Shown piece after piece: positions 15,251 to 19,088 of a stretch of DNA of 64,000 bases. The stretch comes from an uncultured Gammaproteobacteria bacterium (GTDB taxonomy: Bacteria; Patescibacteriota; Patescibacteriia; UBA9934): NCBI GenBank assembly GCA_964599455.1, contig CAZREA010000002.1:51810-115809 (forward strand), written 5' to 3'. The translations under genes and the position numbers were made by a program. How positions within the stretch are numbered: position 1 is the first letter of the stretch; each line of letters opens with the position of its first letter. The notes under the pieces are model-generated. The model searched no databases. It was not told where the DNA came from and saw only the letters and a program-made list of their open reading frames with translations.

Positions 15251-16243
15251 TCATAATCCTTTCGTAAGGTTCATACCGCTTGTGATATGACGAATGGTCG
15301 AGGTGAGCCTGTAGGCATTCGCATAAGTACAAAGACCTAAATAAGAGCTCACATTCTTTTTCGTCACTCGTCGAACCATCCTGTGCGCAGTATCAGGACG
15401 TATGATCGTTGCATAGGGGAGAAGAATATAACCAAGGAAGTCAAAACCCTGCGTCCAGGTACGAACATGTATTTTATCTGGATGTAATTCGATCTTGAGA
15501 TTCTTACGAAGAAAAGCATCGACCTGCCCTGCTAATGCAAATCCTTTCTTTCGAGAAGAGGTGAGCATAATAAAATCGTCACAATAACGAAGATACTGTT
15601 TTACTCTGAGCGTTTGTTTTACATACCAATCAAGCTCGTGAAGATATACATTGGCAAATAATTGACTCGTAAGGTTGCCAAGAGGAATTCCTGTTCCGGG
15701 CGACACGGAAAAACTTGTAACGATATTACGCAGTAATGTCATTACGCGCGGGTCCGATATCCGTTTGGAGAGAAGCTGGAGCAGAATGACATGATTGATT
15801 GACGCAAAAAATTTTCGTACGTCACACTTTATCGCATGTATGGTTTTTGTATTGTTCTTTGATGTTTGGTGAGCGAACTTTCGCAACCTTCGTACTGCAG
15901 CATGAGTACCCTTACCAACTCTACACGAATAGCTGTCATGAATAAACCGTTCCTCAAATAACGGTTCGATAACATTGACAATGGCCTGATGAACAACTCT
16001 ATCCTTTACCTCTGCTTTATGGATTATCCGCTCCTTTGGGTCGTGAATGGAAAAGGCTTGATAAGGGCGGTGGCGATAGCTACCCGAAATAAGCTCTTCT
16101 CGTATTGCAAAAAGGTTGTCCTCAAGCCTCCGTTCGAATACCATGACGTCTTCACGAGTCCGCTTACCTTTACGAAAACGTTCCCACGCCAAAAGCAGAT
16201 TCTCAATCGATGCCAAGTGCTCGAATACATCGTTATTCCCCAT
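15251..16243 (-). CDS. diversity-generating retroelement (DGR) reverse transcriptase
   Basis: RT motifs: SYSCRVGKGTHAAV (motif 2), KCDVRKFFASINH (motif A), LGNLTSQLFANVYL (the DGR-type IGxxxSQ motif B'), and RYCDDFIML (YxDD). At 330 aa it is the size of bRT. TR/VR repeats lie adjacent. Confidence 0.85.
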   Translation of the reverse strand: MGNNDVFEHLASIENLLLAWERFRKGKRTREDVMVFERRLEDNLFAIREELISGSYRHRPYQAFSIHDPKERIIHKAEVKDRVVHQAIVNVIEPLFEERFIHDSYSCRVGKGTHAAVRRLRKFAHQTSKNNTKTIHAIKCDVRKFFASINHVILLQLLSKRISDPRVMTLLRNIVTSFSVSPGTGIPLGNLTSQLFANVYLHELDWYVKQTLRVKQYLRYCDDFIMLTSSRKKGFALAGQVDAFLRKNLKIELHPDKIHVRTWTQGFDFLGYILLPYATIIRPDTAHRMVRRVTKKNVSSYLGLCTYANAYRLTSTIRHITSGMNLTKGL

Positions 16244-16265
16244 TCTATGAATGACACTATTTTCT

Positions 16266-16275
16266 CCCCCCCCCC
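16266..16275. repeat. C10 homopolymeric tract in the 56-bp RT/avd divergent intergenic region
   Basis: ctcccccccccccaggc; a slipped-strand-prone tract positioned where divergent promoters would lie. Confidence 0.6.
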
Positions 16276-16299
16276 AGGCTTAACCGAGAAGAGCGACAA

Positions 16300-16656
16300 T
16301 TGCTCCGCGGAGGTCCCGGCGATATTCCCATCGTTCATACGCTCTATGACACCTATGTTTTATGGAATGAAGTGTTAGAAAAGTTTCCTAAACTGCAACG
16401 TTACACGCTCGGTGAAAACTGTTCGCGATACTTACTCTGTACCCTCGAGCTTCTTCTCGCTGCCGCAACATTAGCAAGCCAAACAGAGAAATTGATAAAA
16501 CTGAAAGAAGCAAGCGCGAAGATTGATACCGTGAAACTCCTTGTACGACTCTGTAAAGATTGTAAATGCATAACCAATATCCACTATCTCAAAACCGAAT
16601 CCAAACTTATTGATATAGGAAAGATGTTGGGAGGATGGATAAAATCTGCAGGATAA
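16300..16656 (+). CDS. avd: Avd-like accessory protein (four-helix-bundle family), encoded opposite to RT and TR
   Basis: FPKLQRYTLGENCSRYLLCTLELLLAAATLA and a C-terminal IDIGKMLGGWIKS resemble the four-helix-bundle/Avd family (BPP-1 Avd ends VGRILGSWIARV). The minus strand has no ORF of 60 aa or more here. Start codon uncertain. Confidence 0.6.
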   Translation: MLRGGPGDIPIVHTLYDTYVLWNEVLEKFPKLQRYTLGENCSRYLLCTLELLLAAATLASQTEKLIKLKEASAKIDTVKLLVRLCKDCKCITNIHYLKTESKLIDIGKMLGGWIKSAG

Positions 16657-16658
16657 GA

Positions 16659-16690
16659 GAAGGAGCGCCTTTCGGCGCTCCTTTGCCTTG
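16659..16690. terminator. perfect hairpin between avd (+) and TR (-), putative bidirectional terminator
   Basis: aggagcgcc-tttc-ggcgctcct with T-rich flanks. Confidence 0.5.
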
Positions 16691-16696
16691 ATGAGA

Positions 16697-16832
16697 ACTC
16701 CCGAGGGGAGGGACGGAGTAACCGGGGTTGTCGTTGCTCCGCCAATTGGCGTTCAGCTTGACCTTACCGGAATCGGTGTTGCGGTTCACAACCACCACGT
16801 TCTGCCACTCCTCGTTATCATTCTCGGGGACG
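16697..16832 (-). repeat. DGR template repeat (TR)
   Basis: 136 bp, about 88% identical to 17280-17415. All 16 mismatches are T in this copy on the plus strand, i.e. A on the minus (sense) strand. The in-frame TR translation (NDNEEWQNVVVVNRNTDSGKVKLNANWRSNDNPGYSVPPLG) is rich in AAC/AAT Asn codons. Confidence 0.85.
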
Positions 16833-17279
16833 CCTCCCTTTACATCCCATTCTTCCAGGCCACCGGGTACAGACGCATCCAAGGCCAGCCGAATCTCCAG
16901 ACCCCTGGCTCGTACTGACCGTACCCTGAATTTTATGCGGAACCTGTCGCCGAATACAGGCTGGTTCCAAAATGGAATGCGGAGTGCTCGTCAATCCGCG
17001 CCGCACGCTCCGGCATTCAAGGGAAAACGGGATTCCGACGGCATATTGGGACTGCAAGAGATTTCGGCGATCCACCTTCGCCAAGGCTACGGTGGACGCA
17101 CTGGCCTACTTTCCGCTCACAGTTTACCAAAAAGTTGGACAAATAGAAGAGCGGCACCTGGGGAATACCGTCCTTCGTAGGAGGCAAAAACCAGATGCCG
17201 CGAGTCCGCTGCGCGGACGGACGGCCAAGGGACAAATCCCAAGGCCTCCGAGCGCCAAGCGTTCAAGTGCCGAGTATCA

Positions 17280-17415
17280 CTACCCGAGGGGAGGGACGGA
17301 GTAACCGGGGCGGTCGTCGCTCCGCCAACTGGCGAACAGCCTGACCTCACCGGAACCGGTGTGGCGGAGCACAACCACCACGCTCTGCCACTCCTCGCCA
17401 CCATTCTCGGGGACG
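17280..17415 (-). repeat. DGR variable repeat (VR) at the 3' end of the target gene
   Basis: Counterpart of the TR; VR carries C/G/A wherever TR has A (sense strand). It ends exactly at the target-gene stop codon (TAA, 17280-17282). The identical 28-nt GC-rich 3' segment cccgaggggagggacggagtaaccgggg is initiation-of-mutagenic-homing (IMH)-like. Confidence 0.85.
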
Positions 17416-18212
17416 TTAGCCTCATAGCCAGCGCAGTACCAGGCACAGGTCTTGTCGTAGTCGATGACGCCCACCCGCTTCGGGAACAACCACGCGAGCA
17501 CCAGGCCTTCGTCCGCGAGGGACTGGGCATTGCGCACCGACGTGACGTCTTTTCGCTTGCGGTTGGCCGAGAGGTCATTGATGATGACCCACTCGACGAC
17601 CGCGTGGTGTGTCTCATTGCCGTTGAGGAGCCGAAGGCGCTCCACGTCCTCGCCCTGATAAGGCATCGGCTTGGAGTGCAGCAGCTCCCAGCGCCAGTGC
17701 TTGGGGTGGACACGACGCATCGCTTCCCAGTGACGCTCGAAGGTAAGGTACACGCCCTCCGTGCCCTCGCCCCAGCGGATGCGGAGGCTGCGAAACGCAT
17801 CCTTGCCCTTGGGCCAGGCGGGAGCAGTATCGGCGAGCCGGAAGAACACGTCTTCAGTGATACCCCAGTTACCGGCCTCGTTCTGGGCACGAAGGGCGGC
17901 GAGCTGCTCGTCCACCGTCTGCTCGAATGGGTTGGCGTCGGCCTTCTGGTTCGCGGCCTCCACCACGAACTTCATCAGCTCGTCGTCGCCGAGAAGCTTG
18001 AGGAAGAGGGCCATGGAGCCGCCGAAGCGGAAGAAACGGCCGAAGAACTCATCGGCCTGACGGAGAAACACGTTCATCACGCACCTCGAAGCCATCTCTG
18101 ACCAGCCCACAGGAACGCGGCATGCGCCCCATGAACCCTGCCTCTGTTTATTGAGAATGGCGGTTTGGAGCCAAAAAAGCCACAAAACGCCATGCTCAAC
18201 TACGAGAAACAA
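17280..18212 (-). CDS. DGR target protein (variable C-terminus), GC-rich
   Basis: 310-aa ORF at about 60% GC whose last ~45 codons are the VR (…NGGEEWQSVVVVLRHTGSGEVRLFASWRSDDRPGYSVPPLG). N-terminal start uncertain; no obvious signal peptide; fold not recognised. Confidence 0.7.
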   Translation of the reverse strand: MFLVVEHGVLWLFWLQTAILNKQRQGSWGACRVPVGWSEMASRCVMNVFLRQADEFFGRFFRFGGSMALFLKLLGDDELMKFVVEAANQKADANPFEQTVDEQLAALRAQNEAGNWGITEDVFFRLADTAPAWPKGKDAFRSLRIRWGEGTEGVYLTFERHWEAMRRVHPKHWRWELLHSKPMPYQGEDVERLRLLNGNETHHAVVEWVIINDLSANRKRKDVTSVRNAQSLADEGLVLAWLFPKRVGVIDYDKTCAWYCAGYEANVPENGGEEWQSVVVVLRHTGSGEVRLFASWRSDDRPGYSVPPLG

Positions 18213-18263
18213 GGGGTAATAATAACAAAAAAAAGCAAAAAAGTCAACGAACGTGACTGAAAT

Positions 18264-19088
18264 CTACGAATTCTTTTCAAAAAGAAGCTCGATGTGATTC
18301 ATGAGCTTGGGAAGCCCTTGCGCAATGTCCGCACTCAACGGTCCCTCGTGATCATCCATCGCCTCAAGAGCAATCCGAATCATAGAATGAAACCGTGTGG
18401 GAAGATGCTCAAGGCACCATCGCGCTGCAGCTCTCTTGGAGATGGGCTTGTTTTCGTGAAGCGTATAGGCGATTCGGCACAACTGAATCGTAAAATACAT
18501 CTGGTTCCACAAATCGTGACTTCCCCACTCTTCAATGCCTCTTTTTACTTCCTTAAACTTTTCTTGCAACGCATCCTGCAAAAGATGCGGATCTATTTCT
18601 GAAATAAACATTTTTGGCTCCGGACCGTAGAGCACAAGACCGCAATCACGAATATTTTGTATATCCATACTCGCCCCTTCCATATGAGCATTGTCTCGCA
18701 TTTGACCGCCAGAAAAACCGATCGTTTCAAGATGATTTTGTATCTCGCTTGTAATCGACTCTTTATTGGCAATGTCTAACTCTAGACGACGAAACCACGA
18801 ACTTGTTGCAAGTGGACCATTTTCATACCATTGTTGCAGACGAGATTGCCCTTCTGCATCAAGTGTCCTCGTTGTTACTACAAACACATCAACATCACTT
18901 CGTTCTTCTTCAAAATCGCCATACGACAATGATCCGTAAATATAGATTCCATACAAAACATCTTCCAACACGCTTGGAAGTTCTTTTTGTAAAATTCGTA
19001 AACATTTTTTGAGATCTTCGGGAATATTTTCTGTTTCAAAGTTTCGTTGACGTTGATATTCCATATTGTTCAAAACTGTATGATCCAT
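18264..19088 (-). CDS. nucleotidyltransferase (ANT(3'')/AadA-like, with DUF4111-like C-terminus)
   Basis: GIYIYGSLSYGDFEEERSDVDVFVV is the Pol-beta-superfamily GS-x(n)-D-x-D motif; length and C-terminal domain resemble the aminoglycoside adenylyltransferase family. Confidence 0.65.
   Translation of the reverse strand: MDHTVLNNMEYQRQRNFETENIPEDLKKCLRILQKELPSVLEDVLYGIYIYGSLSYGDFEEERSDVDVFVVTTRTLDAEGQSRLQQWYENGPLATSSWFRRLELDIANKESITSEIQNHLETIGFSGGQMRDNAHMEGASMDIQNIRDCGLVLYGPEPKMFISEIDPHLLQDALQEKFKEVKRGIEEWGSHDLWNQMYFTIQLCRIAYTLHENKPISKRAAARWCLEHLPTRFHSMIRIALEAMDDHEGPLSADIAQGLPKLMNHIELLFEKNS

Follow-up and report, generated by a model that had tools for sequence, protein, structure and literature searches.

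To our knowledge, no natural system other than the diversity-generating retroelements (DGRs) brings about targeted hypermutation of proteins in prokaryotes, and we know of one phage element alone for which the mechanism of the template RNA has been described. DGRs are abundant in the ultra-small Patescibacteria and are under development as tools for in vivo evolution. The RNA of the BPP-1 DGR carries, on one strand, a primer strand, 2 nt and a stop strand; the former forms a duplex at the 3' end of the template repeat (TR) and the latter one immediately upstream of the TR, and 207 of 278 DGRs were reported to have tetraloop-capped Avd-binding stem-loops shortly past the TR (Handa et al., bioRxiv 10.1101/2023.10.23.563531). 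A hairpin following the variable repeat (VR) is a known requirement of DGRs (Guo, 2011), and in phage DGRs this hairpin has a stem of 7–10 bp and a GRNA loop. For the DGRs of the candidate phyla radiation (CPR) the published architecture is B3, with the order TR-(avd)-RT, in which RT denotes the reverse transcriptase (Wu et al., 2018, NAR, PMC5758913). These B3 DGRs and DGR clade 2 of Roux et al. (2021; PMC8144416) are the closest known systems to the locus described here, which lies within a window of 64 kb, i.e., the whole stretch of DNA that was analysed. Judged from its sequence, the locus is a complete chromosomal DGR of the Patescibacteria type, and its genes and repeats are the following:

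15251–16243, minus strand: DGR reverse transcriptase, 330 aa (RVT_1, 1.7e-21; PHROG 1423, 3e-104)
16300–16656, plus strand: Avd, 118 aa (Pfam bAvd PF22296, 51.8 bits at a cut-off of 40)
16700–16832, minus strand: TR, 133 nt with 32 adenines, 88% identical to the VR and differing from it solely at adenines
17283–17415, minus strand: VR, 133 bp, encoding the final 44 residues of the target
17280–18077, minus strand: target gene, 265 aa; the N-terminal part is helical, and the alpha/beta domain behind it has the VR at its end
18219–18247, minus strand: promoter-like site upstream of the target gene, TTGACT-17-TATTAT with a TG extension, by consensus match alone

The preliminary description had classified the RT as DGR type, and this is borne out as both LGNLTSQ and YCDD are present, i.e., the [I/L]GxxxSQ of motif 4 and the YxDD box by which the DGR clade is recognised. 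The closest solved relative is the bRT of the Bordetella phage, which is the best PDB match (8ub7_A, E 5.7e-44, residues 5–294, with the segment GIPLGNLTSQLFANVY aligned to GIPIGSLTSQLFANVY), whereas RTs of group II introns match at 1e-24 only. An Avd-like ORF had been seen between RT and TR, and its identity is supported by Pfam and by PHROG (phrog_3206, "Avd protein of DGR", 3.2e-16); the NCBIfam model DivGenRetAVD reaches 69 bits, which is under its cut-off of 80. The avd gene lies on the plus strand, opposite to RT, TR and target, so that it is divergent from the RT gene and convergent with the TR RNA, and avd is inverted in all related loci that carry it. On this gene layout, TR-(avd)-RT with avd on the opposite strand, the locus is of the B3 architecture of CPR DGRs.

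TR and VR form a direct repeat on the same strand with a spacing of 583 bp. The pair had been described as two 136-bp copies (16697–16832 and 17280–17415); the pair itself stands, while its length has to be corrected to 133 bp each (16700–16832 and 17283–17415), as the three outer nucleotides (16697–16699 and 17280–17282) are non-homologous and read, on the minus strand, AGT past the TR and the stop codon TAG past the VR. The count of 16 mismatches was right, as was the observation that all 16 show a T on the plus strand of the first copy, i.e., an A in the minus-strand (sense) TR. Tabulated by TR base, 16 of 16 mismatches fall on TR adenines and none elsewhere in the 133 nt, for which the chance is 3.4e-12 if 16 positions are drawn at random (32 A in 133 nt). 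All 32 TR adenines are found at codon position 1 or 2 and none at position 3, and the mismatches likewise affect codon positions 1 or 2 only. Three further claims hold: the TR is rich in Asn codons (AAY accounts for 9 of its 44 codons), the VR terminates at the stop codon of the minus-strand target ORF, and an identical GC-rich segment of 28 nt is located at the 3' end of both copies (16700–16727 and 17283–17310), which is initiation-of-mutagenic-homing (IMH)-like. The 64-kb window contains a single VR and a single target. RT, Avd, TR, adenine-restricted VR, identical 3' segment and post-VR hairpin are thus all present, in agreement with the earlier reading of a complete DGR; as a DGR the locus is another case of an already known kind and its detection is ordinary.

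The target had been reported to lack a recognisable C-type lectin or formylglycine-generating enzyme motif, and searches of the 265-aa protein against Pfam, NCBIfam, PHROGs and PADLOC gave no match; its family comprises at least 186 homologues. The start is most likely at ATG 18077 and not at TTG 18212, given that the 265-aa form is present in the public protein collection and that homologues start there. Structure prediction resulted in a confident model with only weak C-type-lectin-like similarity. The suggestion of a surface protein is not supported: the maximal Kyte-Doolittle hydropathy over 19 residues is 1.09, so no stretch resembles a membrane segment, and the N-terminus, judged by eye rather than by a dedicated predictor, does not look like a signal peptide. 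From its sequence, the target is probably a soluble and cytoplasmic protein. That the target gene is GC-rich is correct, with a GC3 of 0.83 compared to 0.39–0.49 in its neighbours, and the high GC3 (~0.83) recurs across the target family.

The 447 bp between VR and TR received no interpretation in the first reading, and they carry most of the novelty. On the minus strand, a long hairpin, a terminator-like site, an extended -10 box and a 282-nt leader follow each other in this order; together with the pairing partners of the leader and the region following the TR, these features are:

17207–17261, minus strand: long post-VR hairpin, 19 nt past the target stop codon (RNAfold, -34.9 kcal/mol)
17152–17170, minus strand: terminator-like hairpin with T run, with comparable hairpin-plus-T-run sites in related loci
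17121–17129, minus strand: extended -10-like box TGGTAAACT, 6 nt upstream of the conserved leader start
16833–17114, minus strand: structured 5' leader of the TR RNA, 282 nt, starting with GGAAAGUAGGC
16969–16993, minus strand: clamping leader strand, composed of the helix-6 strand UGACGAG (16987–16993), CACUCCG (16980–16986) and the helix-7 strand (16969–16980)
16842–16853, minus strand: 3' strand of helix 7, upstream of the TR and separated from it by 9 nt; partner 16969–16980 (12 nt)
16689–16695, minus strand: 3' strand of helix 6, CUCAUCA, beginning 5 nt past the end of the TR/VR homology; partner 16987–16993
16662–16681, minus strand: post-TR stem-loop GGAGCGCC-GAAA-GGCGCUCC, 19 nt past the TR

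The post-VR hairpin is built from a lower stem, a symmetric UU/UU internal loop, an upper stem of 4 bp and a tetraloop, and the same design with differing stem sequences was observed in about 27 of 30 folded loci; it is a candidate for the target-recognition hairpin of the DGR. CTYGG repeats (CT[CT]GG) are enriched around it, with 5.6 occurrences per 105 nt compared to 0.46 expected. The terminator-like site probably marks the end of the target transcript. A TGnTAnAAT-like box with equal spacing (6–7 nt before the leader start) is present in most of 18 loci examined, and the extended -10 box of the window is the putative promoter of the TR RNA; a simple sigma-70 scan did not call this promoter because there is no -35 element.

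The leader is conserved in 41 loci (nhmmer E ≤ 1e-35), and RNAalifold applied to 17 leaders yielded 55 pairs, 36 of them with compensatory changes. Covariation was assessed in a plain MAFFT alignment of 32 full RNAs with slid partners and 500 shuffles as nulls. Across these 32 loci, the 60 pairs in 10 helices are paired in 94.6% of cells (36–53% for slid partners), 46 of the 60 pairs change on both sides (15–25 for slid partners) and the covariation score is 0.593 compared to ≤0.176 for the controls; none of the 500 shuffles reached the observed values. Two of the helices clamp the TR. Helix 6, which spans the TR and was detected by an unbiased scan over all column pairs, shows both-side changes in 6 of 7 pairs and is paired in 94.2% of cells, with one C-A mismatch in the window itself, and helix 7 shows compensatory changes in 9 of 11 counted pairs and is paired in 99.1% of cells. 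A single continuous leader strand (16993–16969) pairs past the TR 3' end and then before the TR 5' end, and ACUCCG within it is invariant in 32 of 32 loci. The post-TR site forms a hairpin of 9–13 bp in 31 of 32 loci, with stems that differ in sequence and, in most cases, with a U run behind them, which in the window is weak (UUCUCUU). This stem-loop is a candidate Avd-binding stem-loop and/or intrinsic terminator of the TR RNA, and it may be shared with the convergent avd gene.

The order target-VR-spacer-TR was found in 17 genome loci and in 21 of 22 metagenome loci, wherever the related contig is long enough the TR is succeeded by the inverted avd and, behind it, the RT, and the TR/VR mismatches of related loci are nearly all located at TR adenines. 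Near-identical homologous targets, which form two clusters at 90% identity, are the same outside the VR save one residue, and the seven assemblies in these clusters contain four distinct VRs, so that the target family is being diversified in nature. In a second clade (6 loci), whose RT family is 45% identical to that of the window, the TR-(avd)-RT order with avd on the opposite strand is kept and the clamp has the same topology: AUGAAGA in the leader is followed by UACUUGG and by a covarying helix of 11–12 bp abutting the TR 5' end, and the tail UCUUCAU is found just beyond the TR.

Quite probably, the whole is best explained by a Patescibacteria-type B3 DGR, for which we propose a permuted RNA scaffold. 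The TR would be transcribed from its own promoter into an RNA of ~450–470 nt (~17114 to ~16650, minus strand), the ends of which are placed by sequence motifs only, and this RNA would bind RT and Avd supplied in trans. Helix 6 would act as the template:primer duplex of BPP-1 and helix 7 as its cPRT Stop duplex, halting cDNA synthesis; this equivalence is an analogy drawn from topology. If the two helices take these primer and stop roles, the 3' scaffold of BPP-1 (Sp) would therefore sit 5' of the TR here, i.e., it would be permuted. The shared GC-rich 3' segment and the post-VR hairpin would then direct the adenine-mutagenised cDNA to the VR, which it would replace, and the outcome would be, as far as the structure model allows to judge, the diversification of a binding surface of divergent C-type-lectin-like form on a protein that is soluble and probably cytoplasmic. 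The generalisation that patescibacterial B3 DGRs use a circularly permuted RNA, with the RT/Avd-binding and start/stop scaffold 5' of the template and with its own promoter and terminator, is tentative and we place it slightly below an even chance.

The cassette might instead be a relic, in which the TR/VR pattern stems from past mutagenic homing and the element no longer works at this locus. Of 49 genome loci with a target homologue, about 27 have no nearby cassette and in three more, L013, L038 and L046, only a truncated leader remains, so with over half of the related genome loci affected element loss is common; in addition, P0006, a close homologue, is identical on all 9 contigs that carry it, which hints at possibly infrequent diversification, and the target of the window, the single member of its own cluster, is known from one sequence. 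Still, we consider a relic unlikely, as none of the RT, Avd and target ORFs is disrupted, the RT keeps its catalytic and its DGR-specific motifs, the window locus preserves every leader helix as well as the post-VR hairpin, the TR adenines are still confined to codon positions 1 or 2, and drift following inactivation would have added mismatches outside the adenines, of which there are none. The GC-rich island at 16650–18150 (57–65% GC compared to 42–50% in the flanks) could raise the suspicion that the assembly is chimeric or that a horizontal insertion took place very recently. However, the contrast recurs in independent loci, with targets of 61–69% GC in 18 loci irrespective of a flank GC of about 38–67% while the RT/avd side follows the flanks, and in weaker form in the second RT clade, and the edges of the island match functional parts (target, spacer and TR) rather than contig joins, which makes this explanation extremely unlikely.

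Two further alternatives concern the role of the leader. Its own promoter-like box and its position 5' of the TR, like that of a cis-regulatory leader, would also suit a separate regulatory RNA, either riboswitch-like, an attenuator or an sRNA for TR/avd expression, rather than an RT scaffold. But the covarying helix 6 joins the leader to the far side of the TR and helix 7 abuts the TR 5' end, and therefore the fold encloses the template and not a terminator or a ribosome-binding site. The leader is moreover always found near avd and/or RT of the same clade, across targets down to ~26% identity, and no riboswitch or leader family of Rfam matches: at gathering score the whole window contains three tRNAs and no leader family, and at E up to 10 the region 16600–17300 has three weak matches, all at 16603–16744 on or near the 3' hairpin and none on the leader. 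A regulatory RNA is accordingly rather improbable. Very improbable is a BPP-1-like arrangement in which the functional scaffold lies 3' of the TR, antisense to avd, and the leader helices are accessory elements. Handa et al. did predict upstream-downstream TR duplexes and downstream stem-loops in CPR DGRs, on the basis of 40 nt on the upstream and 100 nt on the downstream side of the TR (10.1101/2023.10.23.563531), but in most loci a hairpin with U run closes the tail about 20–55 nt past the TR, the scan over all column pairs, including 95 nt downstream, detected no further covarying helix there, and the avd coding sequence explains the conservation downstream.

The permuted-scaffold reading is accompanied by a covariation-backed RNA model with named helices, an invariant linker and predicted transcript ends for a DGR lineage confined to Patescibacteria. 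If it is true, the minimal RNA requirements of BPP-1 are not directly transferable to a large cellular DGR lineage, and the family-wide target GC3 of ~0.83, a synonymous-site GC bias common to these targets, would point to a further nucleic-acid-level requirement at the target. The analysis also delimits a large family of DGR targets, at least 186 in number and so far unannotated, which are seemingly soluble and intracellular and many copies of which have no cassette nearby.

Compared to the B3 DGRs of CPR/Patescibacteria (PMC5758913), the locus shares gene order and inverted avd and shows no architectural difference; those DGRs are also cellular and chromosomal, lie amid housekeeping genes of a patescibacterial host, a host which for the present locus is deduced from the homologues, and have, as here, a motif-less target with a C-terminal VR. 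The structured leader, the TR-clamping pairing, the CTYGG hairpin region and the target GC3 bias are unmentioned in PMC5758913 and PMC8144416, although the leader may already be described elsewhere, e.g., in Paul et al. (2017) or in the final version of Handa et al. Among the closest known counterparts to the target are the DGR variable proteins of C-type-lectin fold (Mtd, TvpA 2y3c and TaqVP 5vf4). With the BPP-1 DGR (mtd-avd-TR-Sp-brt) the locus has in common a homologous RT (E 5.7e-44), Avd, adenine-specific mismatches, a C-terminal VR followed by a hairpin, a stem-loop after the TR and two TR-flanking duplexes formed by one continuous strand, here helices 6 and 7, both of which covary. It differs in that the duplex-forming strand and the main structure lie 5' of the TR, whereas in BPP-1 they lie 3' of it (Sp), in the inverted avd, in a TR RNA that is seemingly its own transcription unit and in a target which is not a phage tail fibre. 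The 3' duplex is located just outside the TR/VR homology rather than inside the final 17 TR nucleotides, where BPP-1 has it, the helix-6 and helix-7 strands are joined by 6 invariant nt compared to 2 nt in BPP-1, and the post-VR hairpin is longer, contains the UU/UU internal loop and does not have the GRNA loop of phage DGRs. From this comparison it would seem that what is conserved at the core is the two-duplex clamp around the template, while its position relative to the template is changeable.

The template repeat (TR, 16700-16832, minus strand) and the variable repeat (VR, 17283-17415, minus strand, encoding the last 44 residues of the target protein) of the diversity-generating retroelement (DGR) span 133 bp each and lie 583 bp apart, as shown by repeat comparison within the window. 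Their alignment contains 16 mismatches, and at 16 of 16 TR reads T on the plus strand, i.e., A on the minus (sense) strand. The adenine-only mismatches of the preliminary description hold on recount. With 32 adenines among the 133 bases of TR, 16 differences placed at random would all hit adenines with a probability of 3.4e-12. In the frame common to TR and VR, all 32 TR adenines occupy codon positions 1 or 2, and 9 of the 44 TR codons are AAY, in agreement with the Asn-codon-rich character ascribed to the invariant copy; the identical 3′ segment, comprising the final 28 nt, is likewise present in both repeats. While the two repeats exist as described, the ends claimed for them were 3 nt too long on one side, the surplus being the target stop codon TAG beside VR and an unrelated AGT beside TR. 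Comparing TR with the whole window revealed no further TR copies, and comparing the target protein with the window revealed no second target or paralogue.

The reverse transcriptase (RT) ORF (15251-16243, minus strand) matches RVT_1 with 1.7e-21, and its closest solved relative is bRT of the Bordetella phage DGR BPP-1 (8ub7_A, E 5.7e-44, residues 5-294), followed by group II intron RTs (1e-24). Its GIPLGNLTSQLFANVY aligns with GIPIGSLTSQLFANVY of bRT and its catalytic box is YCDD, which supports the assignment to the DGR type. The ORF at 16300-16656, proposed to be Avd-like and located between RT and TR, is Avd according to Pfam bAvd (51.8 bits, cut-off 40) and the PHROG "Avd protein of DGR" (3.2e-16); its 69 bits against the NCBIfam Avd model stay under the cut-off of 80, and phmmer returned no match among PDB sequences. 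The avd gene lies on the plus strand, opposite to the rest of the element. [quoted passage not shown] 2018, PMC5758913), and the DGRs of Patescibacteria form their own cellular clade (Roux et al. 2021, PMC8144416). The element is therefore chromosomal as judged from its neighbours, which are pheS/pheT and genes for an RseP-like protease, a nucleotidyltransferase, a phosphoglucomutase, LemA and HtpX. The nucleotidyltransferase gene, immediately upstream of the target (18264-19088, minus strand), is AadA/ANT-like (AadA_C 2.8e-15, NTP_transf_2 4.7e-6) and weakly matches PDC-S09, a candidate defence family of PADLOC (6.6e-7); it is not kept beside the cassette in other loci with inspected gene lists. 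Thus, the initial observation is confirmed and its interpretation as a DGR is supported. As a DGR the element is a further example of a known and abundant kind, and the added value of the analysis lies in the RNA anatomy, the definition of an unannotated target family, and an anomaly in GC at codon position 3 (GC3).

The target product most likely comprises 265 aa starting at ATG 18077; the start codon is not certain because the reading frame extends without a stop back to TTG 18212. The sole sigma-70-like site upstream of the target, at 18247-18219 (minus strand), implies a 5′ UTR of ~130-140 nt before ATG 18077. The protein has no match in Pfam, NCBIfam, PADLOC or PHROGs. At least 186 homologues were found, the named ones being hypothetical proteins chiefly from Patescibacteria and Uhrbacteria. 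In an alignment of 74 of these, the body is well conserved, and variation in the C-terminal stretch falls on fixed columns. A confident AlphaFold model from this alignment (pLDDT 95.8, pTM 0.87) predicts an N-terminal helical part followed by an alpha/beta domain. We treat this predicted fold as a divergent C-type-lectin-like domain, without firm membership because Foldseek of the model against the PDB found nothing significant; the profile of the 74 homologues reached a best E >= 0.1 against PDB sequences. The suggestion of a surface protein found no support: as the maximal 19-residue hydropathy is 1.09, the target has no membrane-segment-like stretch, and by inspection its N-terminus is unlike a signal peptide. 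Judged from sequence, the target family is apparently intracellular and so far unannotated.

The target gene has a GC3 of 0.83 vs 0.39-0.49 in all other window genes examined, including RT and avd, and its GC at codon position 2 is ordinary. A chimeric assembly was considered as the source of this contrast. In 18 loci, the target has 61-69% GC independent of the GC of the flanks (~38-67%), the RT/avd side tracking the flanks, and a similar but weaker trend is present in a second RT clade (clade 2). The repetition of the contrast across these loci therefore rules out chimeric assembly, and it also argues against recent transfer. The GC bias at synonymous sites is common to the family (window 17280-18077, minus strand; L001-L043 and L073-L078 among the related loci).

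A genome scan yielded 48 loci with target homologues, 17 of which are non-redundant loci with the full window-type cassette (in addition to L004, a repeat of L001), and in these 17 nearly all TR/VR mismatches are on TR adenines. In ~27 of 49 genome loci, neither a leader nor a TR, avd or RT lies within 4 kb of the target homologue (including L002, L003, L007, L009, L012, L014-L015, L018-L022, L024-L025 and L027-L028), and of the cassette L013, L038 and L046 retain just the initial 120-140 nt of the leader, L046 together with an RT fragment. Such cassette-less targets are either served in trans, or cassettes are often lost. In two target clusters at 90% identity, the proteins of different assemblies are identical outside VR but for one residue, and one cluster contains four different VRs among its seven members. 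These VR differences are the pattern that would be expected of active diversification in the family. This pattern is drawn from homologous targets and applies at the family level; P0006, a close target homologue, is identical on nine contigs. Many contigs with the Patescibacteria-type target and cassette (L005, L007, L008, L011, L012 and others) are titled "uncultured Gammaproteobacteria bacterium", single related contigs are titled Lentisphaerae, Ignavibacteriae or Bacteroidetes, and a close RT homologue is labelled as Nitrosomonadaceae "group II intron-encoded protein LtrA". These off-lineage titles are probably labelling or binning errors in public records.

Between the VR homology and the start of TR lies a gap of 450 nt (16833-17282), which includes the 3-nt stop codon. 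Aligned across loci, it consists of conserved blocks in constant order and is not a neutral spacer. The features of this gap and of the region beyond TR are as follows.

17261-17207, minus strand: post-VR hairpin, 19 nt past the stop codon, -34.9 kcal/mol
17170-17152, minus strand: terminator-like site
17129-17121, minus strand: extended -10-like box, 6 nt before the leader start
16681-16662, minus strand: stem-loop of 8 bp with a GAAA loop, after the 3′ strand of the leader pairing that spans TR (helix 6)

In the post-VR hairpin, a symmetric UU/UU internal loop separates the lower stem from an upper stem of 4 bp that is capped by a tetraloop, a design that is kept with differing stem sequences in ~27 of 30 folded loci. 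A hairpin at this place is a known requirement for DGR homing, its phage form having a 7-10 bp stem and a GRNA loop 4-34 bp past VR (Guo 2011), and compared with this stem and loop the hairpin of the window is a distinct variant. The motif CT[CT]GG occurs 5.6 times per 105 nt in the post-VR region vs 0.46 expected from shuffles. Its copies are spaced by 7-15 nt between the target stop codon and the post-VR hairpin (17207-17279, minus strand), at the same place in 30 loci, and are partly the hairpin stems with U-U mismatches; they may also be a protein-binding array.

The leader (16833-17114, minus strand) starts with GGARAGUAGG in nearly all loci and reaches TR with a length of 230-300 nt. For 17 leaders, RNAalifold predicted 55 pairs, of which 36 have compensatory changes. 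A pattern built from two invariant stretches and searched in metagenome contigs, used along with nhmmer, gave 22 more leaders, all 22 of which are true (nhmmer E <= 1e-37). An inverted avd comes after the leader in 22 of 22 copies, and contigs of sufficient length continue with an RT of 58-72% identity to that of the window. VR lies 450-620 nt upstream of TR in 21 of the 22 loci, none being detected in L070, and some of the targets are remote relatives of the window target (profile E 1e-13 to 1e-32). The leader pattern had no match in viral contigs, and there is therefore no sign of a phage origin. To test the structure, which has 60 pairs in 10 helices, 32 full RNAs were aligned with plain MAFFT and without fitting to any structure.

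Structure test of the leader RNA, with the observed pairing compared with partners slid by 1-3 columns.
Measure; observed; slid 1-3 columns
Cells in standard pair; 94.6%; 36-53%
Pairs changed on both sides; 46/60; 15-25
Covariation score; 0.593; <= 0.176

In 500 shuffles, no measure attained its observed value, and the leader is a structured RNA. Rfam gave no match on the leader, either at the gathering score in a search of the whole window or at E up to 10 in 16600-17300. Three further pairings were rejected. The RNAalifold pairing of the leader 5′ GGA with UCU or UCC of ACUCCG is invariant at all positions and thus without support; the CCGAG/CUCGG pairing between the two TR ends, from RNAalifold on the long alignment, is inconsistent and both of its strands are coding-constrained; and the invariant ACUCCG does not covary with GGGAGU after TR, as loci with GGGACU retain ACUCCG. 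A 40-nt insertion starting CGGUCAGUACGAGCCAGGGG in the loop of helix 10 (~16879-16924, minus strand), otherwise present only in L040, L052 and L067, resembles an additional, optional stem.

An unbiased scan over every pair of alignment columns identified helix 6, in which leader positions 122-128 (16993-16987) pair with 420-426 (16695-16689) across TR. Its 3′ strand begins 5 nt beyond the end of TR/VR homology, and 6 of its 7 pairs are changed on both sides. On the same leader strand, following the invariant CACUCCG (16986-16980), helix 7 is formed by 16980-16969 with a partner at 16853-16842 that ends 9 nt before TR, and 9 of the 11 pairs counted are compensatory. Of 32 loci, 31 have a hairpin comparable to the stem-loop after TR, in most cases with a U run behind it, and the all-column-pair scan found no covarying helix within 95 nt beyond TR.

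The RT of L026, 45% identical to that of the window, opened clade 2 as a second large clade in Parcubacteria, of which six loci were sampled. They have the B3 layout, TR/VR mismatches almost all at adenines, and unannotated targets of 207-242 aa in the five loci with a called target. Upstream of TR, ~240 nt are conserved, starting with GGCAGUAGGUGAAUA after a TATACT box and containing, in the order also seen in the clade of the window (clade 1), a strand AUGAAGA, UACUUGG (UACUCCG in clade 1), and an 11-12 bp helix that abuts the 5′ end of TR and covaries among the six loci. Just beyond TR lies a tail UCUUCAU, and in five of six loci it matches the complement of the AUGAAGA strand at 6-8 of 8 positions; because the tail is invariant (n=6), helix 6 of clade 2 is without covariation support. 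The nhmmer profile of clade 1 leaders did not detect those of clade 2, and only common motifs and topology suggest a relationship between them. The Uhrbacteria contig of L026 also contains a 211-nt direct repeat of 94% identity (L026:1883-2093 and L026:4967-5177), with copies downstream of the clade 2 RT and of a clade-1-type target.

In BPP-1, the primer strand Sp47-56 of the Sp RNA, which lies 3′ of TR, pairs with TR117-129, and 2 nt further Sp59-70 pairs with an avd segment just upstream of TR, forming the "cPRT Stop" duplex at which cDNA synthesis stops; TR is immediately followed by an Avd-binding stem-loop, and bRT is bound by a long stem and the long single-stranded "Thumb Ring" (Handa et al., bioRxiv 10.1101/2023.10.23.563531). 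Candidate protein contacts in the leader are two long single-stranded stretches of invariant sequence, CCGCAUAAAAUUCAGG at 16940-16925 and AUCGCCGAAAUCUCU at 17071-17057. The survey of DGRs including CPR in the same work covered 40 nt before TR and 100 nt after it (Handa et al., bioRxiv 10.1101/2023.10.23.563531), a span that leaves the clamp strand of the leader outside its reach. As in BPP-1, a single strand is predicted to pair at both ends of the template; unlike in BPP-1, where this strand is 3′ of TR, the clamp strand and almost all conserved structure of the window are 5′ of TR. The leader may have an earlier description, and its RNA anatomy seems to be that of the sole characterised DGR RNA in permuted form.
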